Part shown: positions 124-30,029 of the stretch, piece after piece
Position numbering within the stretch: the first letter of the stretch is position 1
Layout of the letters: the number at the start of each line of letters is the position of its first letter
Source: a virus
DNA length: 35,399 nucleotides
IMG/VR virus record: IMGVR_UViG_3300017769_000046
Coordinates: 1 to 35,399 of that record
Reading direction: 5' to 3' (one strand)
Program-made: the position numbers and the translations under genes
Notes under the pieces: model-generated
Told to the model about the DNA's origin: nothing
The model's input: the letters and a program-made list of their open reading frames with translations, nothing else
Database searches by the model: none

Positions 124-3100
124 CAGTTTTAAATATATATTGCGGACTTGTACCACTATGAGTGATGTTCCCCGAACTATCGATGCGAAGACGTTCTGAA
201 GCGTTATTAAAAAATATTGTAGGTAGCGAATCGCTAGTGTTAGCAATAGTAAGTCCGCCAGCGTCAGCTAGAATATAGTTTTCGCTAGAACCATTTTTAC
301 CAAAGGCAAGTATTGAACTAGAAGTTCCGTTTAAAGAAAGGGATACACGATTAGAGGTTGTAAAGAAAGGCGAAGCCGTACCAATACCTACGTTGCCGTT
401 TTCCTGAATACGCATCAACTCAGTGCCATCGTCAGCAGTACCATTTGTTCTAAACCTATAACTAGAACTAGTACTACTATTATCTGAGTCAATCTGAAAA
501 ATCATTGAATCACCAGATATTAACCTACCACCAGCTACGCCTGTTTCTCCTATTTTAATAGTATTATGAACTTCGAGTGTTTGCGATGGCGAAGTCGTAC
601 CAATACCTAAACTTTTTGCACTTCTATCCCAAACCATATCTGCATTTTGAGATACCCCATAGAAGTTGACATCACCTGCACTTGTTATACGCATACGTTC
701 AGTACCGCTTGTATAACTTCTTATTTCACTAACAGTTCCACTTCCTGCTCTTAGCTGTAGTAAGCCACCATTACCATGTTCATTTCCAGAGGCGTGAATT
801 GATGCGCCTCTTGCGTCTCCACTAGCCCCTCCACCACTTATTATTATTTGAGCATTATCTGAGCCATCGCTAGTATCTGTAGATATTAAAGTATTTCCAC
901 TAAATTCAACGTCACCAGTAATCCCTACGTTGCCATCGTTAGTTATATTTAGTGTATCATTCCAGCTACTGCCATTATATTGACCAATTTTAAAAGTTCC
1001 ACTGCCAGGATTATTTAATCGTACATGACCACCTAAATAGAGATAACCAGTTCCAGTTGTTTCAAAAAGCGGAGCCACTACGTCACCTGCAAAAGTTGCG
1101 TTGTCATTTTCTCTAAATAAAGTTAAAACATCTGTTCCGTTTGTTGAGTTATCGTGTCTTTTAATGATAAAATCATTAGCAACTCCGTAATATCCTATAC
1201 TAAAACCATAAGTTGAAGTGCTTTCTTTAAAGTTTATGATACTATTCTTTTCAGCATTAGTTTGTAGAGTTAATGTTCTGTGATCGGATGATCCGTCTCC
1301 TAAGGTGATATCACCTGCAAGAGTTGCGTTACCTGACTCATTAACAACAAACAGTTCGTTGTTATTATTAATACTGTCTTGATTATGACCAATAACAAAC
1401 TTTTCACCAGTATTATTGTTATTACTATCTATATTTATTCTTAAAGAAGCTGGTGTATTAATTATACCATTTGTTAATGAGTTTGGGTCTAAGGTTAATT
1501 TACCATCAATATCTACATTACCACCAACATCAAGAGCATCCCCTATATAAGCATCACCACCTAGATATAGGTCTTTAAATCTCGCACCACTAGCACCTAA
1601 GTCTAAGGCGTTGTCGTTTGCTAAACCTGCTGATGTAGCAGGAACAATGCCAACACCACCAAACGCAAACCTTAAATAAGACTGGTCTGAGCCATTAGTA
1701 GTTCCTATGAATAAATCACCGTTAGCAGTACCAATACTTCCTATTTGTGCACTATCTTTGTAAAATCTTAGTATTTCACCATCGCTATTTAATCTTTTAA
1801 ATAAAGCAGTAAAACCACCATCACGAACTTGATAAGAAGCACCATTGGCAAAAAGAACGTGACCTGCGCCTGTACCAGTATCTGAATCAGCACCCACTAA
1901 TACGGTACCCGAACTATCGATGCGCATTTTTTCGCTACCCGATACTTGAAACTCTATATCTGTTCCAGTAGCATTATTTATTTGTGCATTACCTGTTCCT
2001 GTAGGACCAATGTTTATGCGACTAGCAATATTAGTTCCTACAGATTTCAGCCAAAGAGTATCAGTATAACCAGATGGGGCTTGTAATGTAAGTGGTGTAT
2101 TATTAACTGGCGAATCCGTACCAATACCTACGTTATTGCTAGTATCGATTGTTAGAGCAGTTGTGGAAGCTGTATTGTTATATATACTAAACTTATCATC
2201 AGTTCTTGTATTTACAAACCATGATTGAGCATCATTAGTTAAGTCAAGTTGGGCGGCTCCATTGGCGCCTGCATTTTCTATTTTTAATACTACGCCAGCA
2301 CCTGCTGATGAGGCTTTTACATGTAGTTTACCAACAGGATTAGTAGTACCAATACCTACGTTGCCTTCTTTGTTAATAACCATTCTTTGCTTAATACCGT
2401 TAGATGCTGCACCAGCGGTAGCAAATATTAATTCACCATCTATCCAGTTATTACTATTACCTGTACCAAGAGGAGATCTAGCATAAATACCTGCCATAGA
2501 AGCTTTATAATCTGTACTCCCTGTTTCTCTTTTTGCAAATAAAAGCATAGGTGAGAAACCACCAGCTGTATTATCATCATTGTATAATGTCAATCCAACG
2601 GTATCTGGTCCTGTAGTTGTACTGCTATCAGTGACCATTGTAATTCCTAAAGTTGAAGTATTAGTGACTTTAGGGTCGTAATCAGTGTTATCTACTGATG
2701 TATTTTTTATATATAAATTATTACCACCGTAATTAGTACTCCATGTAGGACCTACATAAAGTTTACCAACAGGATTAGTAGTACCAATACCTACGTTGCC
2801 GTTAGTTATAGCAACATTATCTTCAAAACTTATACGCACGCTACCGTCAAGCCCATAAAGGTCTCTGGTTGTGCTAGTCATTCCTAAAACATTAGTCCCA
2901 TCAGCCTCTCTTAATATGTCTGTTCTTATACGAGTAGCATATAAAACTCTCCACCTATTTGCAGTTCCACCTAAAAACTCAGTGTCATCAGCGTTAGGTA
3001 TTATATCTGCTGAAGTAAGCTGACCAGTAAGCGTACCACCTGTAATTGGTAAAAAGTCAGAAGCAGTAGGTATCGTGTCACTATTAAAGGCGTTGGAACC

Positions 3101-16175: not shown

Positions 16176-17735
16176 TTATTGCTCACTGTTTGATTCAATA
16201 CCAAGTTGAACTTGTCTTGCAAGTTCTTCCTGAGGTAATATATCTAATAAATTACGTAAATCCGCAGAACTTTTCGGCATACCATATTCCTTGAAGTAAT
16301 TGGTAACCTCATCAATGTCCTCTTGAGGCATAGAGCGCTTCCTCATATACTCTGATGTCAATTTAACAAGTAACGGTAGAGGCATAGCCTTGTACTGCAT
16401 ACCCTCTGTAATATCTGAGAATATTTCTTGCGCACTAGACAAGTCATAATGCTTGCTGTAGGTAACAATATAGTTCTCAAAGTCCTCGTCACGAACCCTA
16501 GCCATCCTTCTAAGGACTTGATTTTCAATCATTTCCATATCCATGGCTGTAGAAGCTAATAACCCTTGCTCGTCTACATTATCAAACCTCTTAGCTGCTC
16601 CAGATACGTTACTCTTAACAAGAGACTTATCACGAACCATAGCCATAGAAAATATCAATGACATCAGGTCACCAAAGATAACATCCCTGAGATGTTGCAA
16701 GCCCTGCATATCGGCTTGGTACAACATATTGTTGGGTATCGTTTGGTCATCAGGTATGATAATCGCCATACCCACGCCCTCTTTGATTGTGCGTGAATCG
16801 TACTGGTCATCATCAGCGACACCTGCTAGGCTTCGCACAATAGAGTCAGTAAGAACAGGGATAGGATGACCGAATAGTTCCGACCCTTTTTTCAGGTCAT
16901 AAAACAATTCAGAACAAGCAAGATACATACCTTTCAAGCTGTATCGTCTAGGCTTACCAACTACAAACGAACTATTTGCATCTGTCTGACCCTTGAGTAG
17001 TGTAGCTGGAACCTCACCAAATGGGTTGTCTATTTCTAGCACCTTTTGCTTTATATTATTTTCTTGGGTATATACGCAGATATACTCAGGTGTATAGGCT
17101 GTCCATTTAAACTTCTTTATGTTCTGAACGTCATAATACATCTGACGAGTAACAAGAAGCGTCAATACGCCCTGCTTAACTTGGAAGTTAAATATTTCGT
17201 GAGGGCGCAAAACAAAGTTATAGGGAACCACGTTGCCGCTATCATCAAGGACTGGCTCACCTTCGTTGTCCATCATTAGGTCAGTAACTACCGCACCAAA
17301 GCCAAGAACCTCCTTCACAAACATTACCTTGTCACGATAGAACTCAGTAATAGAACAACCTGCGTCATCAAAGTTACCTGACTTATATTTCCAAAAGTCT
17401 TTGTTTTCAGGGAACATTCTGTTGACGTTGTTTTCGTCATATATCCTCTGTTGAGCAGCAAAAAACTTCTGCTCCAAAGGAAATAACTTCATTCTCTTCA
17501 GTCTTTCTCTATATTCGTCATCAGACTCAATAGTGGACTGCTCTATGATGTAGGACTTATCAGAAAATACTGTACTAGATATGGCTGTGTACTCATCGTA
17601 TTCAGCCTGAAACCAACTATTCATAATTTTAGCACGATCAAGGACCACGCTATAATATGGATGTCTAGTCTCTTTCATCACTATATCTTCAGCGACATCT
17701 TTGGGTACAGAGTAAATTTTAGATAAATCAATCAT
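16176..17735 (-). CDS. portal protein (putative)
   Basis: 519 aa, the largest ORF between terminase and scaffold. Called from size and synteny. Confidence 0.65.
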   Translation of the reverse strand: MIDLSKIYSVPKDVAEDIVMKETRHPYYSVVLDRAKIMNSWFQAEYDEYTAISSTVFSDKSYIIEQSTIESDDEYRERLKRMKLFPLEQKFFAAQQRIYDENNVNRMFPENKDFWKYKSGNFDDAGCSITEFYRDKVMFVKEVLGFGAVVTDLMMDNEGEPVLDDSGNVVPYNFVLRPHEIFNFQVKQGVLTLLVTRQMYYDVQNIKKFKWTAYTPEYICVYTQENNIKQKVLEIDNPFGEVPATLLKGQTDANSSFVVGKPRRYSLKGMYLACSELFYDLKKGSELFGHPIPVLTDSIVRSLAGVADDDQYDSRTIKEGVGMAIIIPDDQTIPNNMLYQADMQGLQHLRDVIFGDLMSLIFSMAMVRDKSLVKSNVSGAAKRFDNVDEQGLLASTAMDMEMIENQVLRRMARVRDEDFENYIVTYSKHYDLSSAQEIFSDITEGMQYKAMPLPLLVKLTSEYMRKRSMPQEDIDEVTNYFKEYGMPKSSADLRNLLDILPQEELARQVQLGIESNSEQ

Positions 17736-18411: not shown

Positions 18412-18498
18412 GGTGACAAAATAGTTACTATTTATGTTTTGATTCAATACTAAATTAAAGTATTGATTTGTAGTGATATTTTCTTTTACTTTTCACCT

Positions 18499-18885
18499 AT
18501 GGCAAAAAACGAACCATCAAAACCAGCCCTATACAGTCGAGTTAAGTCTGAGGCTAAACGCAAGTTTAAGATATTCCCTAGCGCCTACGCTTCTGCGTGG
18601 ATTGTCAAGGAATACAAAAAACGAGGTGGCACATACACAGGAACAAAGTCTTCCAAAAGAGGCGTGGCTCGATGGATGCGTGAAAAATGGACTACCCAAG
18701 ATGGATCACCTTGTGGGTCAGCCAAGTTCAAGGGCGTAAAAAAATGTCGACCTACTGTTCGTATTAGCAAGGAAACACCTGTTACTTGGAAAGAACTCAA
18801 GGCAAAAGGCAAGGCTTCTGAGGCTGTACGTGAGAAAAAGCGTGTAGGAATGGGTAAACGCACCAAAGCCATCAAAAGAGACTAA
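18499..18885 (+). CDS. small highly basic conserved protein (PSAYASAW...KKRGG motif)
   Basis: MAKNEPSKPALYSRVKSEAKRKFKIFPSAYASAWIVKEYKKRGGTY... This is the only plus-strand gene inside the late module, and it is followed by a strong plus-strand terminator. Confidence 0.65.
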   Translation: MAKNEPSKPALYSRVKSEAKRKFKIFPSAYASAWIVKEYKKRGGTYTGTKSSKRGVARWMREKWTTQDGSPCGSAKFKGVKKCRPTVRISKETPVTWKELKAKGKASEAVREKKRVGMGKRTKAIKRD

Positions 18886-18970
18886 AAAAGGTATTGTTTT
18901 TAAATAACTATGCTTTTAACTTATATTTGTTGACATGCTTTGGCTTGAGAACCTTAGCTTGTAAGAATTT

Positions 18971-19004
18971 AAAGCCTGTTTGTTAACTCAAATGGGCTTT
19001 TTTT
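18971..19004 (+). terminator. rho-independent terminator
   Basis: aaagcctgtttg / caaatgggcttt forms a 12-bp stem (two G.U pairs) with loop ttaact, followed by a T run up to 19004. It abuts the stop (19003) of the convergent terminase nuclease ORF. Confidence 0.75.
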
Positions 19005-19788
19005 ATCTAAGTACGTACATTGGGGTGTTACTACCTTTTTCATTACGCCAAATCGCATAATCTGTTGCATCCGACATATGTCCCCTGTCACCATTGTCTA
19101 TTTTTAGCCCTTTATCGTTCACGATAGAGTACATATAGTCTTTTACAACGTATTCGCACCTCGTGTTGACTAATAAACGTCTTTCGCCATTGAGTCCAGC
19201 GTAAATTACGTTGTTCACCTTGTCCACACGCACCTTTCTTCGTGGATTTTGGATGTCCAACTCGTTTTTATACAAAATATCGTTTTGTTCAAACACCTCT
19301 CGCACATAATCCCAGTCATTTTTGCCTACACGACCATAATTACCACTTTTTTGGTTGGATGTGTTGTCTCCAGCTAATAAAACCTTTGAAATACCCCATT
19401 TATTCAGTAATTCTACCGCCTTCAAGGCTTGCTCAGTAGTCAATGCCTCTTTGGAGAAGATTTCATCGAAAATAATGTACTGCTTAAGACCATTACGAGC
19501 CTTTTTAACTTGGAGCAAAGCCCAACAATGAGGAGACCTGTTGAAATCAGCACAAAGCCAGACAGGACTACCGCTATCGTAGTCAAGAGCCGTAAGATTA
19601 CCATCAGGGTAGTGATTGTATCCATCAAAGTGTTTATAAGCCTTCTTCGTAGGGTCATCTGTTTCCTCACTCATTTCGTACCCAAGCTTATACGACAGAA
19701 AGTCCATCGCTTCCTCTTGGAGTAGCCGTTGTTTACTGTGATTGGTTTCCCACAAGGGAATGTCCCATGTCTTGTCGGGTTCTCTCAT
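19003..19788 (-). CDS. terL: terminase large subunit, C-terminal nuclease half (separate ORF)
   Basis: 261 aa with acidic-residue blocks typical of the RNase-H-like terminase nuclease: VWLCADFNRSPHCWALL, LLAGDNTSNQKS, HMSDATDYAIW. Its ATG overlaps the upstream stop (ATGA). Its frame is open for only 5 codons upstream. Confidence 0.75.
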   Translation of the reverse strand: MREPDKTWDIPLWETNHSKQRLLQEEAMDFLSYKLGYEMSEETDDPTKKAYKHFDGYNHYPDGNLTALDYDSGSPVWLCADFNRSPHCWALLQVKKARNGLKQYIIFDEIFSKEALTTEQALKAVELLNKWGISKVLLAGDNTSNQKSGNYGRVGKNDWDYVREVFEQNDILYKNELDIQNPRRKVRVDKVNNVIYAGLNGERRLLVNTRCEYVVKDYMYSIVNDKGLKIDNGDRGHMSDATDYAIWRNEKGSNTPMYVLR

Positions 19789-20132
19789 GTAAAAAGTATA
19801 GATTTAAAGGCACTTTCTGCGTCAACAAAAAAGATGGGGACACCCATTTCGGCACCCTCCTCTACTATAGATAATGCACCTGATCGGTGTTCGTGTAATG
19901 TTCTAAGGTCGTAAGTGAGTATGCCCCATCTGTTCTTTATGCAATCATCAAGTAAAGGGTTTAGCTTTTTAGAATAAGAACCAGTCTGAATTATTTCCCA
20001 ACACTGCTTTATTACTTTAGCATCAATCATTTCTATAAAGGAGTTTATATCGTCCTTCATAGTATCTACTTCAGACTGCTCAATATCTGTGCTAAATCTA
20101 GCGTATATGACTACTTTAGGTTGTTCCATCAT
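19785..20132 (-). CDS. serine-recombinase (resolvase) catalytic-domain-like protein without a DNA-binding domain
   Basis: 115 aa. VVIYARFSTDIEQ resembles the resolvase YARVST..Q active-site strand. ...TGSYSKKLNPLLDDC... and GILTYDLRTLHEHRSGALSIVEEGAEMGVPIFFVD parallel SG...RP.L..L and D.vlv..LDRL.R......l...gv.i by eye. Confidence 0.5.
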   Translation of the reverse strand: MMEQPKVVIYARFSTDIEQSEVDTMKDDINSFIEMIDAKVIKQCWEIIQTGSYSKKLNPLLDDCIKNRWGILTYDLRTLHEHRSGALSIVEEGAEMGVPIFFVDAESAFKSILFT

Positions 20133-20622
20133 ATTTTACCATGTTTCTAAGTTCTTTAGCTAGTACTCTTGGTATATCATACCATTCACCCTTATGATGA
20201 TTATTCTTTATTATTTTATGAATTTGTTTTTCATGCTTGTATATGTGGTTGCTTTTAACAGACCAAATTAATGTTATATCAAAAGGATTACCTGTCTTCA
20301 TTTTAGATATTCTTCTTTTCATAAGACCAGAAGTTACCCCAAACTTATAATAACCCTGACACTCTACGCAATACACGATTCCTTTTTTAACATCACAAAA
20401 TTCTTTAAAGTTTTCTAAATCCTCTTTGGTGATTATCTCACTCTTATTAGAAATCAATATCTCACAAGCCCTGATAAAATTTTTACGCCACCTTCTTTTA
20501 GTATTGCCATGCATATATTTTGTTATAGAATCATTTAAATCAATAAGATCATAACCCTTTGGTCTAAGATTTTTTATAAGACTAAGACATATGCCAACAT
20601 TAATAGATATATTTTTTTCCAT
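20116..20622 (-). CDS. T5orf172 / GIY-YIG-superfamily domain protein (free-standing homing-endonuclease-like)
   Basis: GIVYCVECQGYYKFGVTSGLMKRRISKMKTGNPFDITLIWSVKSNHIYKHEKQIHKIIKNNHHKGEWYDI matches the YKIG.T...  R...  tg.P......E..lH......GEWF pattern. It is markedly more AT-rich than the flanking terminase ORFs. Confidence 0.7.
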   Translation of the reverse strand: MEKNISINVGICLSLIKNLRPKGYDLIDLNDSITKYMHGNTKRRWRKNFIRACEILISNKSEIITKEDLENFKEFCDVKKGIVYCVECQGYYKFGVTSGLMKRRISKMKTGNPFDITLIWSVKSNHIYKHEKQIHKIIKNNHHKGEWYDIPRVLAKELRNMVKYDGTT

Positions 20623-20633
20623 TACAAACTAAA

Positions 20634-21437
20634 TTATTTCAAATTGTTCCATTCTTCTACTTTGTAGCCTGTTTTATCTTCCTTTACCGATATTTGCAGT
20701 ACGTTAAAGATGCCCGACTTCATTAGCCGACTATTAGCATCATTCGGATGATAGGGCGTACAAACGCTTAAAACAATACCTTTATCGTGAACACGCTTGA
20801 TCCATGTATTCGACACCTTGTTCCACACCGTTTCCCTGCGAGCCGTAGATATTCTATCTTCATCATTGCACACATCATCAAGGATCAAGACACCAGCTCG
20901 CTGTCCTGTGGTTTGGGTCAGTACTGCATATGCTTCATAGGTAGGGTTACCTGTTCGGTTACGGCTCTTCACAATGATGCGCTGCGTTGAGCCTGTATCT
21001 GTCCTATCAAATTCAACAGGGCTAAAGTTATGTTCCCTGCACCAGTATCGGTACATATCACTCATGAACAACGCACGTAGCGATAATATCCTCTTAGCAG
21101 AGATGCCCCCATCAGCCGACACAATCAACGTTTCTAGTTCGTGCTTTCGAGTGGTCATGTAGGCAGACAAACCAATAGGCACTTGTTGAGACTTACCAGT
21201 GTTATAAGGCGCCCTAATTAGACCATTCAGACGAGCACTTTTAGACAAGGCTTCTTGCTCCCAGTCATAAACCCCTTTCTGCATAGCGAGGTGTATTTGG
21301 GCTTGGGTCACTTTACGACCATCTTGATCGGCTAAACAGTTCTCAATAAATGAGTTCCTGAGGTCTAATGAGTCAGGGGGTGGATCATGTCCAACCACAT
21401 TAACCAATAAATCAGACCAATTAGCTTTTTGGGGCAT
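20634..21437 (-). CDS. terL: terminase large subunit, N-terminal ATPase half (separate ORF)
   Basis: 267 aa. Walker-A-like RAPYNTGKSQ, Walker-B-like GVLILDDV and a coupling-type motif SVCTPYHP. It ends with a stop 12 nt before the inserted ORF. Confidence 0.75.
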   Translation of the reverse strand: MPQKANWSDLLVNVVGHDPPPDSLDLRNSFIENCLADQDGRKVTQAQIHLAMQKGVYDWEQEALSKSARLNGLIRAPYNTGKSQQVPIGLSAYMTTRKHELETLIVSADGGISAKRILSLRALFMSDMYRYWCREHNFSPVEFDRTDTGSTQRIIVKSRNRTGNPTYEAYAVLTQTTGQRAGVLILDDVCNDEDRISTARRETVWNKVSNTWIKRVHDKGIVLSVCTPYHPNDANSRLMKSGIFNVLQISVKEDKTGYKVEEWNNLK

Positions 21438-21558
21438 ACGTTATCTTACAAAATTTACATTGCTTCTCACACTTCCTTTTACCAGAAATCACGCCCAAAC
21501 ACTTAAAAGGTTCTTTCTTTCTCCAAAGCCTAGCAAGGAAGTTCAGGTTAAACTTCAT
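21421..21558 (-). CDS. small Cys-rich ORF (45 aa), not in the track
   Basis: Hand translation: MKFNLNFLARLWRKKEPFKCLGVISGKRKCEKQCKFCKITYAPKS. It fills the 110-nt gap, with its ATG overlapping the upstream stop region and its stop overlapping the terL start. Confidence 0.35.
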   Translation of the reverse strand: MKFNLNFLARLWRKKEPFKCLGVISGKRKCEKQCKFCKITYAPKS

Positions 21559-22054
21559 AGGTATATGCCTTCTCCTTGAGCTCCATCAAGTCCTCCTTCG
21601 GTATATATACAAAGATATCCTTTCTATTGTTTCTACCCATTAGCGTATAAGCAATGGTACTGAAACCATATTTTTTATGGAGGCTATTGCCTCGTAACAC
21701 GCCTTTCTTATTGTTTATCTTGGGAATCATCTTTTTCTGTACGTATCCATACAGAGCCTTATTGTCCACGACCACAAACTCTCCATGAAACTGAAAGGCT
21801 ATTTTATCTGCACCATGGGGGCTACACCATCCAGACTTACCCTGAACGTTCCTAAACTCTATTAGGATATACCCCTTACTGTGGCACCCCTTAATGCCCT
21901 TGACATCATAGGTCACATCCCCAATACGAGCGTCAATGTGATTGTAGTCATCTTGCTTCGTGCCTTTTACGGCTCCTGTAATCTTGCAGAATAACTCTTC
22001 CGACTTCTGAGCCTCAGCGTACTGTCTTTTTTGTATTGCTTTAAATGAGTTCAT
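21548..22054 (-). CDS. PD-(D/E)XK-like nuclease-fold protein (putative)
   Basis: 168 aa. HIDARIGDVTYDVKGIKG...GYILIEF...GWC...ADKIAF has the shape of a D...(D/E)xK core. It lies between the small- and large-terminase genes. Confidence 0.4.
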   Translation of the reverse strand: MNSFKAIQKRQYAEAQKSEELFCKITGAVKGTKQDDYNHIDARIGDVTYDVKGIKGCHSKGYILIEFRNVQGKSGWCSPHGADKIAFQFHGEFVVVDNKALYGYVQKKMIPKINNKKGVLRGNSLHKKYGFSTIAYTLMGRNNRKDIFVYIPKEDLMELKEKAYTYEV

Positions 22055-22622
22055 AGTCTACCTCTATCGCCTCCATTCTTTGTGCAAACTCCTTCAGTTG
22101 ATCCATGTTTAGGAAGTCCTGAAGAACCTGCAACGTTTGTTCTCGCACCTTGTTTTTATACTCTATGATAATCGTTGGTTCATTACTCAACTCTTTACGA
22201 ACGTCATGTAAGTCTTTCATGATTTTACTCAAGTCCTTTGGGTGAATCGCATCCAAGTCTGGGTGATTCTCAAGCAGCGTAGTAATCTTTATCAGCATAA
22301 ACTCAACCTTAGCCGACATCTTCTCTTTTCGCTCCTCTAGCGTCCCAATGAACTGAAGAGTGTTACGGTACTGCTCAAGGTCTTTTAAGAGTTCTGGGTC
22401 AAATTTTGAGCGCTGCACGACATCCTTTGCTTGCTCACGTATCTTTATCTCTTCATCAAGGTTTGATCGTTGGTTTTTCCAATTGTAAATGGTTTGCCTT
22501 GACACACCCCATTTATCAGCCACTTTTGACACGTTACCCATCACCTTTATTTCCCTAAGGATGGCTACTTTCTCTTCAGGACTAAATTCGTTATTTCCAA
22601 CCTCTTTTTTTGACATACTCAA
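22041..22622 (-). CDS. small terminase-like protein: N-terminal HTH plus coiled coil (putative)
   Basis: 193 aa. HTH: VSKVADKWGVSRQTIYNWKNQ. It sits at the head of the packaging module. Confidence 0.5.
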   Translation of the reverse strand: MSMSKKEVGNNEFSPEEKVAILREIKVMGNVSKVADKWGVSRQTIYNWKNQRSNLDEEIKIREQAKDVVQRSKFDPELLKDLEQYRNTLQFIGTLEERKEKMSAKVEFMLIKITTLLENHPDLDAIHPKDLSKIMKDLHDVRKELSNEPTIIIEYKNKVREQTLQVLQDFLNMDQLKEFAQRMEAIEVDYELI

Positions 22623-22981: not shown

Positions 22982-23015
22982 AAAAAAATAGCCCTGCATA
23001 TAATGCAAGGCTATA
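22982..23015 (-). terminator. rho-independent terminator closing the AT-rich cassette
   Basis: The minus strand reads ATAGCCTTGCAT-tat-ATGCAGGGCTAT (12-bp stem, one G.U pair) followed by TTTTTTT. Confidence 0.8.
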
Positions 23016-23043
23016 GGTTTAAAGTATATTTTAATTATATATT

Positions 23044-23337
23044 TTAATTGTCAAGTTTTACATAATCTGAAAGATCTAATCCAACATTATTTTGTTTTAT
23101 ATCCACACCTAAAAGTTGATTTATAGCTTCACTTATAAGAAAAAATTCGCGACTGTTAATCTTATTTTTAAGTTTATTATATGACATATTTTTTAAGTCA
23201 GATATACGATTTTCTGAAATACCTTTTTTATCTTTATCTATATTTTTACTTTTAGCAGATATAGATGTAGCTGTAATTAAACGTATATTAGTTTTTTCAC
23301 ATCTAAAATTGAGATAATATTCTATAAAATTTTTCAT
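23044..23337 (-). CDS. hypothetical protein, possible XRE-like HTH
   Basis: 97 aa, extremely AT-rich codons. GISENRISDLKN...LISEAINQLLGVD loosely resembles an XRE-type HTH. Confidence 0.45.
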   Translation of the reverse strand: MKNFIEYYLNFRCEKTNIRLITATSISAKSKNIDKDKKGISENRISDLKNMSYNKLKNKINSREFFLISEAINQLLGVDIKQNNVGLDLSDYVKLDN

Positions 23338-24068
23338 GCTGCTAACCTCATATTTTTAGATTTTAGTTTCTTAGCTTTTCTATAATCTTGGCTATATATT
23401 TTATATGGTATTTTATATAAATCTTTTTTAATAATTTTATAGGTATTATCATTTCTCATTACATTCCATAATGAAGCTTGAAATTCATAATAGTTTATAT
23501 CATATTTTTCAATAAAAGGTATAGCAATAATTTTCATAATGGTTTCTAAATCTTCATATACTCCTACATTATTTAATTTAGTTTTCCATATATCATTATT
23601 TTTAAATAAAGCTTTCATTATATGTGTATCTATAGTTATATAATTATTATCTAATAAAAGATTCCTATAAAAACTATATGTTTTTTTAGCTTTATTTCTA
23701 GCTAAGAATATATCTTTACCTTCAAATAATGGTAAAGCTTTTTTCCAATTATCACGTGATTGCCATTTTCTATGTTTATCTAAATCTATTTTTATACCTT
23801 TCTTTACAAGTTTAAGTATACGATAAACTTCATCTACATTTCTAGAGTATTTTGTATTGGATGAAAATACAGAAAACAATTGAGCTGTTTTATCAATATC
23901 TAAGAATTCGTATTCTTTATGTATATCTTTAATTAAATTATTATTATCAATATACCATTGTTTACCGTATTCAATATCTTCTATAGTTAGAAATCCTAAA
24001 GAATGTATAAGATTAGATTTAATTAGTTTTCTATGATTAGGTATAAAAGTTATATATAGTTTTTTCAT
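23334..24068 (-). CDS. hypothetical protein (largest gene of the AT-rich cassette)
   Basis: 244 aa, K/N/I/Y-rich. The blocks GKQWY, FSVFSSNTKYSRNV and KKTYSFYRNLLLDNNYITIDTH recall a conserved phage family of unknown function (WY...S(P/S)...W..N...K..sFY.N...(V/I)TID(R/T)H), from memory only. Confidence 0.55.
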   Translation of the reverse strand: MKKLYITFIPNHRKLIKSNLIHSLGFLTIEDIEYGKQWYIDNNNLIKDIHKEYEFLDIDKTAQLFSVFSSNTKYSRNVDEVYRILKLVKKGIKIDLDKHRKWQSRDNWKKALPLFEGKDIFLARNKAKKTYSFYRNLLLDNNYITIDTHIMKALFKNNDIWKTKLNNVGVYEDLETIMKIIAIPFIEKYDINYYEFQASLWNVMRNDNTYKIIKKDLYKIPYKIYSQDYRKAKKLKSKNMRLAA

Positions 24069-24087
24069 ATTATTGTATATTTTAAGT

Positions 24088-24306
24088 TTATATTTTATAA
24101 GTTAGTAGATATTTAGTATTATTTTCTAAATCGCTTTTCCTAATTATTTCATTTTTACCTATAAGGTAGTATCTATCAAAGTGTGAAATAATTGATTCAC
24201 GAACTGCTATATTATTAATATCATATTTTAAATCGAATGTATTAATAATAAAATCTATTTTAATTTTATCTGTATTTTCCATGTTATTATATATTTGAGT
24301 TTTCAT
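24088..24306 (-). CDS. hypothetical protein
   Basis: 72-aa ORF in the AT-rich cassette, overlapping the upstream ORF by 20 nt. Confidence 0.45.
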   Translation of the reverse strand: MKTQIYNNMENTDKIKIDFIINTFDLKYDINNIAVRESIISHFDRYYLIGKNEIIRKSDLENNTKYLLTYKI

Positions 24307-24535
24307 TAATTAGTTGATAGTATTTTTCATTCGTACTATCAATTATTTCTATACGGTTTAATCTAAACTTTCGTATAGCAAAATTTAGTTCATATAATTC
24401 ATTGCCACATATAGGACAACCTTCAATCCATTTTATATCCGAAAATATATTTTTTTCTGTATCTATCGATATAATATGTTCTTCATCCAAATCTATATTA
24501 CAACTTGGACAATAACTTTGTATTTCATTATACAT
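24287..24535 (-). CDS. zinc-ribbon protein (CxxC...CxxC)
   Basis: 82 aa with YCPSCNIDL ... GCPICGNELY. Confidence 0.5.
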   Translation of the reverse strand: MYNEIQSYCPSCNIDLDEEHIISIDTEKNIFSDIKWIEGCPICGNELYELNFAIRKFRLNRIEIIDSTNEKYYQLINENSNI

Positions 24536-24536
24536 A

Positions 24537-24644
24537 TTATTATCTATTTATAAGATGAATAAAAATATGCATTCCAAAGTATAGAAAGGTAAAACTCATA
24601 AATGTAATAAAACATATATGATATAATCGTTCGAATTTTTTCAT
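24537..24644 (-). CDS. small hydrophobic peptide (35 aa), not in the track
   Basis: Hand translation: MKKFERLYHICFITFMSFTFLYFGMHIFIHLINR. Its TAA lies 1 nt before the next ATG (TAATATG). The upstream 22 nt (ATAAACTAAAATATATAATAAC) closely resemble those before the 23334..24068 gene (TAAACTTAAAATATACAATAAT). Confidence 0.4.
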
Positions 24645-24893
24645 GTTATTATATATTTTAGTTTATATTTTAAGGCCTATTTTTTGCCTTGTTTTTCAGT
24701 ACTATAATATAACACTAATTAACTAAAATACAAAATACTAAATACAGTATTTTCAATAATATACACTAAAATGATTATTAATATACACCTTATATTATAC
24801 AAAAAAGCAACTAGCTATATTATATATTAAAATATATTTTTAAAGTATATAATTAGTAAAAATCCATTTTAAGGGTACGTAAAAATTTGGCAT

Positions 24894-24924
24894 AAAAAAA
24901 CCCTACACAACTCAATGTATAGGG
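24894..24924 (-). terminator. rho-independent terminator ending the leftward early operon
   Basis: The minus strand reads CCCTATACA-TTGAGT-TGTGTAGGG (9-bp stem, one G.U pair) followed by TTTTTTT. Confidence 0.8.
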
Positions 24925-24947
24925 CTTATAACTTTAACGGATAATTT

Positions 24948-25163
24948 TTATTTTGGTTCCTTATAAGGGTAATAGGCAACGTCATCACCGTTTGCTAGTC
25001 TTAGAATTGACTCATTAGACAAGGAAACTCTTATAGATTCAAAATTTATATGGCTAGTCAGTTCAATAAATATTTTACCGTCTTTATATATATATTCCAT
25101 TTCCAAAAAATTGAGTCTATTTATACATTTTTCTATGTCATTAATTGTTACTTTCTTATACAT
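24948..25163 (-). CDS. hypothetical protein
   Basis: 71-aa ORF, overlaps the upstream gene and is followed by a terminator. Confidence 0.5.
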   Translation of the reverse strand: MYKKVTINDIEKCINRLNFLEMEYIYKDGKIFIELTSHINFESIRVSLSNESILRLANGDDVAYYPYKEPK

Positions 25164-25439: not shown

Positions 25440-25715
25440 TTAACCTCTTACTGTGTATGTGTTGCCATTTGCTTTCACCTTGGTTAAGGAGTGTGCATTT
25501 ATTGTTCGATACTGTGCCTTATACATATCGAATGCTACTATATACCCATTCTCACTAGGGTTATACGACATGGAACCACCTCTTAAGTGTTTTTTAACAC
25601 CTAATCTAGCTACCATGTTTCTTTGTGTGCCATCCTTTTTTTTGAAGCTAACACTAAATATTGAGTTATTCTGACTTTGTAATAGGTTATATGCTTGTTG
25701 CTTATTGATTGTCAT
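25440..25715 (-). CDS. small beta-barrel protein (DUF2693/WYL_2-like, tentative)
   Basis: 91 aa. IFSVSFKKKDGTQRNMVARLGV... resembles the v.F.KKDG..R.m pattern of that family (from memory). Confidence 0.5.
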   Translation of the reverse strand: MTINKQQAYNLLQSQNNSIFSVSFKKKDGTQRNMVARLGVKKHLRGGSMSYNPSENGYIVAFDMYKAQYRTINAHSLTKVKANGNTYTVRG

Positions 25716-25765
25716 AATTCATCATGTTTTGTTATTGTTATTTTAGAACACAAGTAATATATGAC

Positions 25766-25774
25766 TTATCCACA
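25766..25774 (+). promoter_or_regulatory. perfect DnaA box TTATCCACA
   Basis: Read directly (gacTTATCCACAttaa), in the intergenic region between the O-like replication gene and the next gene. Confidence 0.6.
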
Positions 25775-25805
25775 TTAAAACAAAAAAAAACTTGTCTTGT
25801 TGTTA

Positions 25806-26234
25806 TTAATCCTCGTATTCTCTGTAGTCTATCAAACCACCTAATATAGGAGAAGAATCTTGTCGTGGTTTGTATGTATTGTTATTGTATTGTTGTGTGT
25901 TAAATTTCTTTACCACTTGAGGTAAAATTTCTTTACCATGGGGTAAAATTTCTTTACCCAACATTAGCTTAATTTTGGTGGTTCTGTTGTGTCGTTTTTT
26001 AGTAGAAATCAATCCAATTTTTTCTAGGTTCGATAATGATTTAATGATAGTTGGTTTGCTATAATTAGTCATCCCACAAATTTGAGAAACAGAAATTCTG
26101 TCCTCTGTCTTGTTCCAACCCCAAGTCTTTCTAATGATGGCTAATAGTACTAAAAATTCATTATGACTAAGTTCTTTCATGTACTTATCGAAAATTGAAT
26201 TTGGTATTGGTATAAATCCTTCTTGCTCAAGCAT
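25806..26234 (-). CDS. replication initiator, phage lambda O-like N-terminal (wHTH) domain protein
   Basis: FIPIPNSIFDKYMKELSHNEFLVLLAIIRKTWGWNKTEDRISVSQICGMTNYSKPTIIKSLSNLEKIGLI matches the Phage_rep_O pattern (...RkTyGwnK..d.IS.sQ...TG.s...v..al..L). Only 142 aa. Confidence 0.75.
   Translation of the reverse strand: MLEQEGFIPIPNSIFDKYMKELSHNEFLVLLAIIRKTWGWNKTEDRISVSQICGMTNYSKPTIIKSLSNLEKIGLISTKKRHNRTTKIKLMLGKEILPHGKEILPQVVKKFNTQQYNNNTYKPRQDSSPILGGLIDYREYED
25899..25958. repeat. iterons inside the O-like gene: 2 perfect and 1 imperfect copy of GGTAAAATTTCTTTACC (candidate origin)
   Basis: Perfect copies at 25921-25937 and 25942-25958 (21-bp period) and an imperfect copy, gtTAAATTTCTTTACC, ending at 25914. 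Each unit has inverted arms GGTAAA/TTTACC. They encode GKEILPHGKEILP. Confidence 0.7.
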
Positions 26235-26315: not shown

Positions 26316-26576
26316 ATGCCCAAGAATATTTGGAACTATCGAATAATGATAGATGACCATGGTGGTAAAAATAAAGTCACATACAGTGTACATGAAGTAT
26401 ATTATGCCAAAGATGGGTCACCAGAGGACTACACCAAGATGCCCGAAACGATGCTTTCGGATGACTTGGAGGAAATCTTTTGGTGTCTAGAACACTACAT
26501 CAAAGCCTTCGCTTTGCCAATGATAAGTATACCAAACTTTCCTAAGGAGGTACCGTTACATGAAAATTTTCAGTAG
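26316..26576 (+). CDS. hypothetical early protein
   Basis: The track starts at a TTG (26307). The ATG at 26316 is preceded by GGAGG (26302-26306) at a 9-nt spacing. Confidence 0.55.
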   Translation: MPKNIWNYRIMIDDHGGKNKVTYSVHEVYYAKDGSPEDYTKMPETMLSDDLEEIFWCLEHYIKAFALPMISIPNFPKEVPLHENFQ

Positions 26577-27411
26577 TATGTCTAACCATGACTATCATGA
26601 GCATGGATCAGACTATATATCTAGCAGCTTTGTTAAGAGCGTAGCGAAACACTCAATCGCTAAAGCCCTGCAACCAATCGAGGCTAGTCAAGCGCTCATA
26701 TTTGGTGATGCCATGCATACCTACTTTGAGTCCAAGACAGACTTCCATAGTAGGTTCGTTACATTCGATGATAGAGAGGTCATATCTTCGATTAGAGAGG
26801 CTCGACCTGAAATTACGGCTCCTAGTATGACTAAAGAATACAAGGCGTTTAGGAGGGAATTTGAGAAGGGAGTTGATAGTGACCAAACAATCATTTCGTT
26901 GCATGACGTTGAGCGTATCGAGCATATGTTTAATAGCGTAAAGAAGAATAAGGCCGTAGCGGAAATTAATGAACTCTACGAGTACAATGCGATTTGGGAT
27001 GAGTATTCATTCTTTAGTGATGAGTCTTTCCAAAAATTTAGGCCATTAAACTTCAGGGTTCGGCCTGACAAGATGCTCGTCCAAGACGAAAATCCAATGG
27101 CCATCATAGATTGGAAGTCATGTAAGGATGCTAGTAAAAATGCATTTCGTTCTGACTTCTTTCGTTATAGATATGATATACAGGCTACTTTTTATTGTAT
27201 GGTTCTGGGCTTAGAATATTCCGACTTTTATTTTGTTGCAATTGAAAAAGAGTATCCATATAATAGTGCCGTATACACGCTTAGCTATGACACGTATACC
27301 AAGGCAGCAAATGACATGACAACTGCCCTAGTGCAGATAGCCGAATGGAAGGATCACCCCAACGACTCTTCTATAGGTATTTTAAACCAAAACACAATAA
27401 CAGAGTTATAA
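26560..27411 (+). CDS. PD-(D/E)XK exonuclease (DUF3799 / RecE-like exonuclease VIII family)
   Basis: SNHDYHEHGSDYISSSFVKS resembles the N-terminal ..YH....iS.S.lk signature, and IIDWKSCKDAS resembles D-x-K-type core motifs. It is paired with an ERF annealase downstream. Confidence 0.7.
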   Translation: MKIFSSMSNHDYHEHGSDYISSSFVKSVAKHSIAKALQPIEASQALIFGDAMHTYFESKTDFHSRFVTFDDREVISSIREARPEITAPSMTKEYKAFRREFEKGVDSDQTIISLHDVERIEHMFNSVKKNKAVAEINELYEYNAIWDEYSFFSDESFQKFRPLNFRVRPDKMLVQDENPMAIIDWKSCKDASKNAFRSDFFRYRYDIQATFYCMVLGLEYSDFYFVAIEKEYPYNSAVYTLSYDTYTKAANDMTTALVQIAEWKDHPNDSSIGILNQNTITEL

Positions 27412-27412
27412 T

Positions 27413-27616
27413 ATGGACATACTTAAATTCTATATAACATTTACTAGCCACCTTAATTCACAAAGAATGGTGTATGAACAGAAGATAATAAATGAACAAG
27501 ACAAAGAGGCACCTGATTATCATGAGCTGGCTGCATATGAGGCTAAAAAAGAGCAGACAGACGAAATTCACAGAATGTTTCTTGATGACGTAAATAAAAT
27601 ATTAATCCAACAATAA
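27413..27616 (+). CDS. hypothetical acidic protein
   Basis: 67-aa ORF tightly packed between the exonuclease and the annealase. Confidence 0.45.
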   Translation: MDILKFYITFTSHLNSQRMVYEQKIINEQDKEAPDYHELAAYEAKKEQTDEIHRMFLDDVNKILIQQ

Positions 27617-27623
27617 CAGAACT

Positions 27624-28064
27624 ATGAAAAACCTATACACAAAACTATTAGATGTAACTAGCAAAATTGAAAAGCTAGAGAAGGACAAGAAGAACCCATT
27701 CTTTAAGTCATCCTATGTAAGCCTAGACAAGGTGATAGATGTAGTAAGGCCACACCTACTTGCCGAAAAATTATTATTGATACAACCAATCGAGCAGGGT
27801 TGTGTGGGTACAAGGATTATCTGCACTGAGTCCAACAAGTCTATTGATTCATTTATACCACTGCCTGAAAATGTAAAGCCTCAAGACTTAGGTTCTTGTA
27901 TAACTTACTTTCGTAGATATACACTCGTATCACTTTTGGGTCTTTCTCAAGAGGATGACGATGGGAATAAGGCTCATGGCAGGGCTAACCCACCTAAAAA
28001 GAAAGTGCCTGCACGTGCTAGAGACATGAAGGATGCGATGTTAGACGAAAAATTTCCGTTTTGA
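27624..28064 (+). CDS. erf: ERF-family single-strand annealing protein
   Basis: LYTKLLDVTSKIEKLEKDKKNPFFKSSYVSLDKVIDVVRPHLLAEKL... and ITYFRRYTLVSLLGLSQEDDDG fit the ERF pattern (..Y.sL..v......l...gl / Y.rRY.l..l.G....DDD). Confidence 0.7.
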   Translation: MKNLYTKLLDVTSKIEKLEKDKKNPFFKSSYVSLDKVIDVVRPHLLAEKLLLIQPIEQGCVGTRIICTESNKSIDSFIPLPENVKPQDLGSCITYFRRYTLVSLLGLSQEDDDGNKAHGRANPPKKKVPARARDMKDAMLDEKFPF

Positions 28065-28147
28065 TCACCTCCGTAGCAGTAGCCCTCATTATCATTTCGG
28101 TGGTAGTGGGGGCTTCTTTGTCTTATGAAAGAGGGCAATAGAACGCT

Positions 28148-28555
28148 ATGAGCAGAGCCAAGGGTAGGAGAACAATACGTAAAGCTATAGCCTATCTAGA
28201 GGATCAAGGTATGTTGGTAGATGAGGTAGAGATGGGTGGCCGTTACAATTTGTATAAAGACCTGTTTGCAGGGTATTGTACGAAGTGTTGGGTCAAGAAG
28301 TGTGAACACCAAGACAAGTTCCGATTTGAGGGGTTTGATTTAATTGCGCTGTCTGATAAGTGTGTATATTTTATACAGGTAAAAACCAACACACCACCTG
28401 CGAGAAAAAACTATATTCGTTTTGCTAAAAAGTTTGCTAGTAAATATATTAGCGTCTTGTCCATGACTTGGTATGACCGAAGGGGATGGGTGTTTCATAG
28501 GTTTACTAGGCTAGGAGACGTAACTAAAAAAGATTTAAGAAAAAACAATAAATGA
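28148..28555 (+). CDS. Hjc-like PD-(D/E)XK Holliday-junction resolvase (putative)
   Basis: AKGRRTIRKAIAYLEDQGMLV ... GFDLIALSDKCVYFIQVKT has the shape of a D...(E/Q)xK core. It sits in the recombination module. Confidence 0.5.
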   Translation: MSRAKGRRTIRKAIAYLEDQGMLVDEVEMGGRYNLYKDLFAGYCTKCWVKKCEHQDKFRFEGFDLIALSDKCVYFIQVKTNTPPARKNYIRFAKKFASKYISVLSMTWYDRRGWVFHRFTRLGDVTKKDLRKNNK

Positions 28556-28794
28556 GAAGAAAAATGACTCCCAACGAGCAAAGTATAGTAAGATTGATAA
28601 AGAACAGTACAAAGCCAATAACCTATCCCGACATAGAAAAGGTTATGACTTTTGATCCTCGTAAGGAAAAGTATTGGTCTGTATTTTCCACCGTATCTTC
28701 GCTCGTAGAGTCAGGAATAATAACAATAACAAAACATCCTAGCACATATTCATTAACCAAGTATGGTAGGATGAAGTATGAACAGATAACATGA
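28552..28794 (+). CDS. winged-helix DNA-binding protein (putative)
   Basis: 80 aa. ITYPDIEKVM...VSSLVESGIITITKHPSTYSLTKYG looks like a wHTH. ATGA overlaps at both ends. Confidence 0.45.
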   Translation: MRRKMTPNEQSIVRLIKNSTKPITYPDIEKVMTFDPRKEKYWSVFSTVSSLVESGIITITKHPSTYSLTKYGRMKYEQIT

Positions 28795-30029
28795 ACCACT
28801 TACATTTAGAGGAGTGTTTAATTGGCACCCTTTTAAACCACATTGAATATAGAGACTTAATATTTGACATAACCGATAAAGACCATTTCCCAAACAGATA
28901 CCCAATATATCTAGAAGCCTGCAGGCAACATGGTGAGGGAATGCAGTTTGATGCTGAAACTATTAGTGCGAATGTCAAGGAGTATCCATACACTCAAATA
29001 CTTGAGATGCAGATGCATGGGATTCCTAGTGAGCAAAAAATTAAGTCTTATGTATACGCATTAAAGGAGCAGAGAGACCGAAGGTTACTTAGGGACTCTA
29101 TCGCCAAGACATATCACTTCTCTCAGAAGGAGGATATTACTACAGATGACTTGTTAATGCATATATCTAAACTGTCTGATGATACCGATGAAACTGGTGA
29201 CTCAGGAGCCTTAACACCTGCCCAGATATTTGAGCGAGAACTTAATAATCCAATCAAGGAAAAATTAACGACTAATATCTCATTAATAGACAACAATATT
29301 TATAAAGATGTGGGCTTGCATAAGGGTGACATTAACGTAATACTTGCAGACTCTGGTCATGGTAAGACTCAGTTCTCTCTATTTTTAGCATCTCAGTTAT
29401 TGAATAGTGGACACGTTGGCCTATGGTTTCAGATGGAAGATTATGATGTCAATACGGCCAAACAGATTGCCCTAAACGCTATGGATCACTGTGAAAAAAT
29501 GTTTATTGTGGATGATAAGGATGACATAGATGAGATAAAAAGGATATGCAAGCTAGTGAAGCAGGAACATGGCTTAGATTTTGTTGTTATAGACTATATA
29601 CAGGAGGTGTATGCTAAGGGGAGGTTTGATTCTAGAACCCTAGAATTAAACTATGTCACTAAAATCATTAAGCAAATAGCTAAGGAGGTTAATGTTGTGG
29701 TGTTAGTTCCTAGTCAAGTAACTATAAATGATCACGTAAGGAATGGTTGGCAACTAGAGCCTAGGTATAAGGACGCGCAATGGGCGCAAGTTATCAAGAA
29801 TGTGGCTCACTGTATGACCTCAGTATTTAGGCCATCTATGGTTCAATCATTGGTGGTTGATAATGGAATTGGTAAAAAAGTTTCTGGTTGGAGCGAGGAT
29901 CAAAGGTTTGACTACAACAGTGTGTTTGTGAAGATTGTTAAGTCAAGAAGGGGTATGATAACCCACGAAAGAATGCAACTCAACCATAACGGAGACAAAG
30001 GACTTGAGATAGCTAAACAGATGTTTTAG
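28791..30029 (+). CDS. DnaB-like replicative helicase
   Basis: N-terminal LEECLIGTLLNH (DnaB-N-like), Walker A LADSGHGKTQFSL, Walker B FVVIDYIQ, 412 aa. Confidence 0.85.
   Translation: MNHLHLEECLIGTLLNHIEYRDLIFDITDKDHFPNRYPIYLEACRQHGEGMQFDAETISANVKEYPYTQILEMQMHGIPSEQKIKSYVYALKEQRDRRLLRDSIAKTYHFSQKEDITTDDLLMHISKLSDDTDETGDSGALTPAQIFERELNNPIKEKLTTNISLIDNNIYKDVGLHKGDINVILADSGHGKTQFSLFLASQLLNSGHVGLWFQMEDYDVNTAKQIALNAMDHCEKMFIVDDKDDIDEIKRICKLVKQEHGLDFVVIDYIQEVYAKGRFDSRTLELNYVTKIIKQIAKEVNVVVLVPSQVTINDHVRNGWQLEPRYKDAQWAQVIKNVAHCMTSVFRPSMVQSLVVDNGIGKKVSGWSEDQRFDYNSVFVKIVKSRRGMITHERMQLNHNGDKGLEIAKQMF

Follow-up and report, generated by a model that had tools for sequence, protein, structure and literature searches.

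Separate genes for the ATPase and nuclease halves of the large terminase in an uncultured marine phage clade, apparently without splicing

The terminase locus and its two half-genes

The viral DNA analysed here, IMG/VR record IMGVR_UViG_3300017769_000046, is a stretch of 35,399 nucleotides (nt), which we refer to throughout as the window and to which all coordinates refer unless a relative is named. It carries a packaging module in which the gene for the large terminase, terL, is present as two separate open reading frames (ORFs). Reading along the minus strand, the module comprises a helix-turn-helix (HTH) gene, an ORF of 168 amino acids (aa) of unknown function, the ATPase half of the terminase (TerL-N; 20634-21437, 267 aa), a free-standing, GIY-YIG-type homing-endonuclease-like gene of the T5orf172 family (20116-20622, 168 aa), a resolvase-fold gene that we call mid (19785-20132, 115 aa) and the nuclease half of the terminase (TerL-C; 19003-19788, 261 aa); downstream of TerL-C lie a small gene on the opposite strand and then the portal gene. 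The four minus-strand ORFs from TerL-N to TerL-C agree with the original prediction, made from the sequence of this stretch, in their coordinates, in the ATPase stop at 20634 and in the nuclease ATG at 19788, and the overlaps claimed there are exact, with 17 nt shared by the T5orf172 gene and mid (20116-20132) and an ATGA shared by mid and TerL-C (19785-19788). The gap from the ATPase stop to the nuclease ATG had been given as 846 nt and almost fully coding; it measures 845 nt (19789-20633) and is coding, being occupied by the two intervening ORFs. The nuclease frame is closed upstream, as had been noted, by a TAA five codons before the TerL-C ATG, and the TerL-N and TerL-C ORFs lie in different frames and do not form one polypeptide. 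A signal scan found no promoter or terminator signal inside the locus beyond chance; this, together with the rigid overlaps, fits a gene string that would be translated by termination-reinitiation coupling.

The assignment of TerL-N is the more direct of the two. It matches the TerL families phrog_38 (E 3e-20) and phrog_4758 (E 2e-14) and, below threshold, the T7-type TerL model NF033889 (E 4e-8), and it has the three elements by which the N-terminal ASCE ATPase of a TerL is recognised: Walker A (APYNTGKSQ), Walker B (LILDDV) and the coupling motif III (TPYH), with G81, K82 and S83, D187 and D188, and T227 and H230, respectively, invariant. Profile alignment with hhalign placed it on residues 3-264 of the intact 533-aa TerL of Vibrio phage 521E56-1 (Zobellviridae) with a probability of 96.8%, and tblastn against GenBank phages returned matches at 25-28% identity only, to intact Zobellviridae and PA11-like TerLs.

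For TerL-C, a sequence search of the PDB, an hhalign comparison with a Zobellviridae TerL and NCBIfam all returned no match, and neither half of the terminase reaches a Pfam threshold; because comparisons at the sequence level gave nothing, structure prediction and an exhaustive profile search were needed. There is, in addition, a weak match to the TerL family phrog_10250 (E 6e-6). The AlphaFold2 model of TerL-C (predicted local distance difference test, pLDDT, 80) has as its best PDB matches in Foldseek the TerL nuclease domains of P22 (4dkw, E 2e-7) and G20c (5m1o), and the exhaustive profile search returned 1941 proteins, most of them 400-600 aa long and matched in their C-terminal half. 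The protein has the RNase-H-like core and conserved acidic residues (D81, D141, D240 and D243, all invariant) of the C-terminal nuclease of a TerL. Ahead of this core, the first ~50-70 residues are also conserved (IPLWEVNHS...LGYEM...DP..AYK.F), with L12, W13, H17, S18, L22, L35, Y37, P46, Y51, K52 and F54 invariant. In isolation this segment is modelled as short helices at low confidence; we suggest that this is the lid or linker part of the enzyme and that it docks onto the ATPase core.

Both halves of the terminase are under strong purifying selection. Over 778 pairs of near-relative loci the ratio of non-synonymous to synonymous substitution rates (dN/dS) is 0.03 for TerL-N and 0.05 for TerL-C, values that are approximate, with dS near saturation. 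The terminase motifs quoted in the original prediction are all present, their key residues invariant over 20-21 homologues, and the profile searches, which might have shown that the 267-aa and 261-aa ORFs are not halves of one terminase family, place both within it. The two ORFs between them have Pfam matches above cut-off, to T5orf172/MUG113 and to Resolvase respectively.

Fused relatives and the break point

The proteins matched by the TerL-C profile include fused relatives of 512-528 aa (P0090, P0095, P0097 and P0098). The closest fused form, P0090 (522 aa), matches the TerL-C profile over residues 265-516 (E 4e-84) and is collinear with TerL-N from residue 1 to ~258; its ATPase and nuclease regions are 47% and 44.5% identical to those of the window, and its neighbourhood has the same gene order (HTH gene, small ORFs, TerL, portal, 237-aa gene, 396-aa gene). 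Across the junction P0090 reads '...KEDKSGYDLKEWIPKDGELKLIREEEFELWDVNHS...', or, with the linker set apart, '...KEDKSGYDLKEW-IPKDGE-LKLIREEEFELWDVNHS...', for which the counterpart in the window is a TerL-N that ends in '...KEDKTGYKVEEWNNLK', directly before its stop, followed by a TerL-C that starts with 'MREPDKTWDIPLWETNHS...'. Since the window halves and fused P0090 are collinear across the junction, the break falls within a short linker of variable sequence, flanked by '...GY.V.EW' and 'IPLW.VNHS'. Comparison with relatives that carry an uninterrupted terL had been proposed as the way to define this point; the outcome, along with the family matches, supports the earlier view that terL is broken, as two ORFs, close to the ATPase/nuclease boundary.

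The halves sum to 528 aa (267+261), with nothing lost or gained relative to a fused TerL. We also considered mid as a missing middle piece of the terminase; this was ruled out, because the two halves already make up the fused length and the fused TerLs (P0090 and the others) contain no counterpart of mid.

A gene in two pieces may still yield a single protein, and for terL there are reasons to consider this, whether by a group I or group II intron, a split intein, ribosomal frameshifting or bypassing: the gene is a known intron host in the Vibrio phage ICP1 (PMC10055350), inteins also occur in it, one of them an atypical split intein whose halves flank an endonuclease gene (PMC2677866), recoding has been suspected for the terL of phiHau3 (PMC10732093) and, in relatives that lack the endonuclease gene, the frame steps by -1 at each junction. 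Set against these precedents, an Rfam scan of 18800-21700 at E<=1 returned no match, and thus no group I or group II ribozyme core, and all 845 nt of the gap lie in two ORFs under purifying selection, in line with the original argument against a group I intron. The argument made there against an intein likewise holds. There is no Pfam intein or Hint domain at the locus, neither a Cys/Ser-led N-intein nor a C-intein ending in ...HN can be found, and the fused relatives are collinear with the ATPase end and the nuclease start, with no extra residues; mid, moreover, has an alpha/beta fold, not a HINT fold, and its frame differs from that of TerL-C. In two distant relatives (L129 and L139) the halves overlap each other directly, so that there is nothing to splice out, and a bypass of 845 nt would be without precedent. 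We therefore consider the rejoining of the halves into one TerL to be highly improbable.

Two specific forms of rejoining were tried and rejected. A split intein, considered on account of the case described by Dassa et al. (2009), in which the C-intein is ~122 aa, is ruled out by the collinearity, by the fold of mid and by its frame. A programmed -1 frameshift (C CUA AAG UAG) was considered at the 19-nt overlap of the TerL-N stop with the mid start that is seen in endonuclease-less relatives; this overlap has no conserved slippery heptamer (variants include CTGAAATAG and CTAAAGTGA) and a shift at this point would become impossible once the endonuclease gene is inserted.

The age of the split and the genes at the junction

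Two word-indexed searches, with a reach down to ~45% identity, returned 30 homologues of TerL-N (46-96% identity) and 38 of TerL-C (44-92% identity), and none in either set is fused. The former measure 232-288 aa, with the exception of one of 353 aa (P0001), and the latter 153-271 aa, the shorter ones being fragments; the protein clusters to which the homologues belong contain up to 535 member sequences. As the homologues are all of half length, the split must long predate this phage. The ‘long’ ATPase homologue, P0001, contains an exact internal tandem duplication (LFMSDMYRYW...LILDDVCND, twice), and its length is probably an assembly artefact.

We fetched 120 loci with both halves, some of which are overlapping fetches of one contig; after removal of duplicates, and counting the window, these gave 58 distinct ATPase-to-nuclease stretches. 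In most of the 120 loci the interval between the halves is ~325 nt and holds mid only, and in about one quarter it is 730-830 nt and holds the T5orf172 gene and mid. The T5orf172 gene is missing from 47 of the 58 distinct loci, all 47 of which are still split. One of these is L082, the closest of the relatives that were compared in detail; it matches the window at 98% aa identity in each half and at 97% in mid, and it too has a split terL and no endonuclease gene. A frame break in an essential gene of a single genome resembles a sequencing error or a pseudogene, and the locus might on that ground be read as a decaying, non-functional terL, belonging to a defective phage or created by an assembly or frameshift artefact. 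Such a reading meets the same break in more than 100 independent contigs from many samples, homologue clusters of the size given above, dN/dS values of 0.03-0.05, conserved overlaps and, in the window, an otherwise complete-looking set of phage modules, and its probability is negligible.

Beyond the near relatives the contents of the junction vary. There is nothing between the halves in L129, where they overlap by 4 nt, or in L139, where they overlap by 20 nt; L128 has two unrelated small ORFs of 35 and 69 aa (4875-5181 of that locus); L130 and L136 have a mid homologue; L134 has a 79-aa ORF (2882-3121) and L137 a 71-aa ORF (1426-1641), each plus mid; and L135 has mid plus a 145-aa ORF (1666-2103). 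With unrelated small ORFs at the same junction in distant relatives, the fission point is a general hot spot for insertion.

These distributions bear directly on the proposal, made in the original prediction, that terL was split by a two-gene insertion; that is, by a mobile cassette of the T5orf172 and resolvase genes that broke an intact gene in the manner in which mobE broke the nrdA gene of Aeromonas phage Aeh1. Both genes do lie exactly between the halves, T5orf172 homing endonucleases favour terminase loci (PMC10055350) and a split caused by an endonuclease has a precedent (PMC3045599). The homologues, however, are of half length, relatives without the endonuclease gene are equally split, and in L129 and L139, which have neither gene, the break falls at the same place. 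Nor do the two genes behave as an inserted pair: mid is present in every near relative, and it occurs without the endonuclease gene in the 47 of 58 loci and in relatives at 46-57% identity. Within the ~45% reach of the word-indexed searches there is no fused terL among the closer relatives, the nearest fused form being P0090 at 44-47% identity. A cassette insertion as the origin of the split is, on this evidence, very unlikely.

In a bootstrapped neighbour-joining tree of ~250 columns the fused P0095, P0097 and P0098 form the outgroup and the split, insert-less L139 branches next (68%); the remainder fall in a group with 100% support that holds the mid clade (85%), L128 with L129 (100%) and fused P0090 with split P0091 (100%). 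P0090 and P0091, the latter a 259-aa split nuclease half from L138, are thus sisters at 57% identity, one fused and the other split, which implies that the state changed more than once or was reversed. Two histories would account for this, a single early fission that a re-fusion later reversed or repeated fission at the one linker; the tree, given its method, its number of columns and its key node at 68%, is compatible with both. Under either history, the covalent link between the TerL domains is evolutionarily labile.

Comparison with GenBank phages gave no match for the locus by megablast and none for TerL-C or the portal protein by tblastn; that collection contains no cultured relative, and on the ground of the tblastn results we assign the phage to an uncultured group; its nearest cultured relatives, as judged for the ATPase half, are Zobellviridae. 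On these sequence comparisons, a terL that is split without splicing is common to a large uncultured marine clade.

The resolvase-fold gene, mid, scores 24.5 bits with Pfam Resolvase (PF00239), for which the cut-off is 23.3; the match covers profile positions 1-101 of 145, and 16 of 20 family members match as well. Its AlphaFold2 model (pLDDT 78) has an alpha/beta fold, for which the best Foldseek matches are weak (E ~0.01-0.03) and fall on serine-recombinase catalytic domains (IS607 TnpA and TP901-1) and viral COG2452 resolvases. It may share with serine recombinases such as IS607 TnpA and the TP901-1 integrase a beta-alpha-beta fold, and some alleles have the N-terminal Y-x-R-x-S-T signature, the motif YARFSTD..Q being still near-canonical in these. 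Unlike them, it has ~100 residues of the domain only, and no E-helix, DNA-binding domain or HTH is found in its 114-115 aa. The nucleophile is not conserved, with the position of the catalytic serine occupied by S, T, G, D, N or P across homologues, and the equivalent of the ‘DRLxR’ motif is D-L-[KR]-T-L-H, in which the motif arginines (the R68 and R71 equivalents) are missing.

With a dN/dS of 0.23 and a non-synonymous rate ~7 times that of the TerL halves, mid evolves fast yet remains constrained. At least 8 allele classes of mid occur in phages that are 86-98% identical in their TerL halves, and elsewhere the mid proteins of phages with 93% identical TerL halves are 42% identical; conversely, mid of the window and mid of L082 (3018-3362 of that locus) are 97.7% identical in nucleotide sequence where the flanking TerL-N and TerL-C are 89.9% and 91.3% identical. 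The closer agreement of mid than of its flanks indicates exchange by recombination. On these sequence patterns mid is a mosaic, recombining cassette and, at the same time, a conserved, fast-evolving and catalytically degenerate resident of one subclade, its homologues extending to L130, L134, L135, L136 and L137. It may be a domesticated relic that has been retained as an accessory factor, or it may persist chiefly because translation of TerL-C is coupled to it.

The signature that mid retains raises the question of whether an ancient mobile element, either an IS607-like or serine-recombinase ancestor of mid or an earlier homing endonuclease gene, caused the fission and was later lost from L129/L128 and L139. 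The near-canonical motif of some alleles, the behaviour of the junction as an insertion hot spot and the documented cases of endonuclease-driven gene fission (PMC3045599, PMC2677866) are all in favour of such an event. Saying this, the loci with mid form a derived clade (85%), and both the most basal split locus, L139, and the L128/L129 pair are without mid, so that a later gain is the more parsimonious explanation; L128, L129 and L139 show no detectable remnant of mid, and comparison with the fused forms reveals no tail derived from an element at either end of the split protein. We thus regard an ancient element as an unlikely cause, though one that merits more weight than the recent cassette, and suggest that mid was most likely gained once, after fission.

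The T5orf172 gene, by contrast with mid, has the distribution of a mobile gene, in that it is present or absent at one site among close relatives. It matches MUG113 (E 2.5e-9, 38 bits) and T5orf172 (E 5e-7, 30.6 bits) in Pfam, both above cut-off, the domain is present in full, and the motifs GIVY...YYKFG...R...GEWY are readable in the 168-aa protein. The 11 of 58 distinct loci that carry it, the window among them, have it without exception at one site, after the TerL-N stop and ahead of the mid start. N-terminal regions vary from one variant to another, and some contain zinc-finger-like CxxC...CxxC motifs as found in CapR-type domains. IMG/VR holds no close relative of the window’s own T5orf172 gene, and two partial close relatives were found in metagenomes. 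In L141 (1100-1505 of that locus) there is a nuclease domain 95% identical to that of the window from about residue 66 onwards, joined to a different N-terminal region and set in an unrelated neighbourhood, downstream of an unrelated 250-aa ORF; we take this as evidence of domain shuffling or mobility of the putative endonuclease. Homing endonuclease genes of the T5orf172 family are known to cluster at terminase genes (PMC10055350), and the present one resembles those described there in its family, its terminase neighbourhood, its varying N-terminal DNA-binding parts and its position at a boundary of sequence exchange.

The anatomy of the insertion can be read from the junction itself. In near relatives this is rigid, with the 19-nt TerL-N-stop/mid-start overlap followed by the ATGA of mid and TerL-C; of 48 endonuclease-less stretches tallied, all 46 near relatives among them have the 19-nt overlap, and an allele without the endonuclease gene reads GAAGAATGGAACAACCTAAAGTAGT at this point. 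In the window the 19 nt are present twice on the minus strand. The right copy (ATGGAACAACCTAAAGTAG, 20111-20129) is identical to the dual-coding overlap of the endonuclease-less relatives, and the left copy (ATGGAACAATTTGAAATAA, 20634-20652) is recoded at five positions, with all five changes silent in the TerL-N frame (AAT TTG AAA TAA vs AAC CTA AAG TAG). Because it is dual-coding, the overlap is highly conserved and hence a plausible target, and the stretch preserved in the right copy is the probable homing target; that the T5orf172 protein has endonuclease activity, and that it acts here, are predictions from its family and position. The absence of the gene from L082, its fixed site, its varying N-termini and the duplicated junction mark it as a late insertion, and it would appear to be a sporadic arrival and a passenger at the dual-coding junction.

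The genes around the locus are those expected of a packaging module. The candidate small terminase subunit, TerS (22041-22622, minus strand, 193 aa), has an N-terminal HTH that matches Pfam HTH_Tnp_1 and HTH_23, along with weak matches to TerS phrogs; a gene at the equivalent position is also found in L129, in L130 and adjoining the fused P0090. The portal protein (16176-17735, minus strand) matches phrog_145 (E 5e-17). Between TerL-C and the portal gene there is a conserved lysine-rich ORF of 128-140 aa (18463-18885, plus strand), also present in L009 and L066, and a terminator-like hairpin (18971-19000) lies between this ORF and the TerL-C stop. Further away, the G+C content drops sharply to 20-22% at 23000-25000, against ~38% elsewhere. 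This AT-rich island has four minus-strand ORFs, of which 23334-24068 encodes a DUF7178 protein (E 1e-17) and 24287-24535 a small protein with CxxC...CxxC; the island is perhaps a recent acquisition or a cassette of early genes. The replication module (25440-26234 and 26560-30029) encodes a WYL_2 protein, a replication protein O-like HTH protein, an exonuclease VIII-like protein and a DnaB-like helicase. No tRNA was found in the window.

A model for the fissioned terminase and its implications

From the arrangement of the genes, their homology, their collinearity with fused relatives, the phylogenetic distribution of the split, the purifying selection and the anatomy of the insertion, all observed at these loci, we propose that terL was naturally fissioned, that it works without splicing and that the split arose before the diversification of a large uncultured marine phage clade, with mid a resident of the junction and the endonuclease gene a later addition; taken as a whole, we consider this account probable. 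An ancestral terL would have broken at its linker into TerL-N, the ATPase core, and TerL-C, which retains the linker or lid segment along with the RNase-H-like nuclease, and the two polypeptides would be produced from one tightly packed string of minus-strand genes. We suggest that the halves then associate non-covalently, presumably on the portal, to give an enzyme that both packages and cuts. The original prediction pointed out that the packaging motor would have to assemble from two polypeptides, and presumably it does, given that both halves are under purifying selection and that fused homologues exist. The junction made by the fission would have become a ‘landing pad’ for other genes: one subclade would have acquired and kept mid, derived from or resembling the catalytic domain of a serine recombinase and possibly accessory in function, and a minority of genomes would later have received the T5orf172 gene at the 19-nt overlap of the TerL-N stop and mid start. 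In the window this insertion appears to have duplicated the 19-nt stretch and silently recoded the left copy, which leaves both ORFs intact and would destroy the presumed target.

Several points weigh against this account. P0090 is a single metagenomic gene call that may be a false fusion created by a sequencing frameshift, and the other fused forms (P0095, P0097 and P0098) are more distant. The assembly of the halves is suggested by their conservation and by the existence of fused homologues, and in genomes of the L129 and L139 type a low-level frameshift product may join the overlapping ORFs. The original cause of the fission could have been the insertion of an ancient mobile element, later lost in some lineages, and a neighbour-joining tree with one key node at 68% does not separate the scenarios for the number of fissions.

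We have also entertained a different reading, in which the enzyme of this abundant marine clade is a true multi-subunit TerL with separate ATPase and nuclease chains and with the conserved mid as a third, lineage-specific component, acting as a bridging or assembly factor or as a regulator of the nuclease. This we think rather doubtful; were it true, the repeated switching between fused and split states would mean that the covalent hinge is dispensable for translocation, and such switching could be driven by escape from Avs-type sensors of intact TerL.

Our preferred account, of an ancient fission with later arrivals at the junction, can be set beside several known systems. The closest analogy, and the one drawn in the original prediction, is with nrdA of phage Aeh1, in which insertion of mobE made the split and also supplied the tails on which assembly depends (Crona et al. 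2011, PMC3045599). The two cases have in common an essential enzyme encoded by two ORFs, a free-standing homing endonuclease gene between them and no RNA or protein splicing, and the analogy holds for the outcome, a protein made from pieces. It fails for the cause, since alleles without an endonuclease gene are split as well: here the split appears to predate the endonuclease gene, exists without any insert and has ends without added tails. Furthermore, the function of the Aeh1 enzyme is restored by non-covalent assembly, which for the terminase we can only infer.

Fractured genes with split inteins have been described from environmental phages, among them a gp17-like terminase locus (Dassa et al. 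2009, PMC2677866), and the resemblance is close, with a terminase gene in two and a free-standing GIY-YIG-type endonuclease gene between. The split-intein halves of those loci ligate the protein, whereas the locus described here shows no intein motifs and has no space for any, and the middle 115-aa protein is a separate ORF with a resolvase-like alpha/beta fold. In the Vibrio phage ICP1 terL is interrupted by an intron and restored through RNA splicing (Barth et al. 2023, PMC10055350); the endonuclease gene described here differs in occupying an intergenic junction of an already fissioned gene, where no intron is detectable. The marine OM43 phages MEP401 and MEP402 have a DNA polymerase gene split by a small ORF of unknown function (PMC10580990), and provide a further case, again marine and Zobellviridae-related, of an essential gene in two ORFs with no intron demonstrated; there the gene is that of the DNA polymerase and the inserted ORF is unrelated. 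In a full-text literature search that was not exhaustive, we found no published TerL that is split without an intein or an intron.

Compared with single-chain TerLs (T4 gp17, P22 gp2, T7 gp19, G20c/P74-26 and those of Zobellviridae), the enzyme described here has the same ASCE motifs, the same RNase-H-like acidic nuclease, a total length of 528 aa against 512-535 aa and the same synteny with TerS and portal; it differs in having its two domains on separate polypeptides. To our knowledge, TerL is one chain, with ATPase and nuclease joined by a hinge, in every tailed phage and herpesvirus that has been studied, and the physical coupling of the two domains underlies several models of how force is generated and how the enzyme switches between packaging and cutting. 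Viromics pipelines in which full-length TerL serves as a marker, or as the basis of a phylogeny, will overlook this clade or annotate it wrongly. Its members also illustrate how a fission point in an essential gene may become a landing site for selfish and accessory genes, and how a dual-coding overlap may offer an ideal, highly conserved target for a homing endonuclease. Finally, domains that are stably separate and strongly selected would constitute a natural experiment on the need for the covalent link, for which the clade supplies naturally evolved TerL half-proteins suited to biochemistry.

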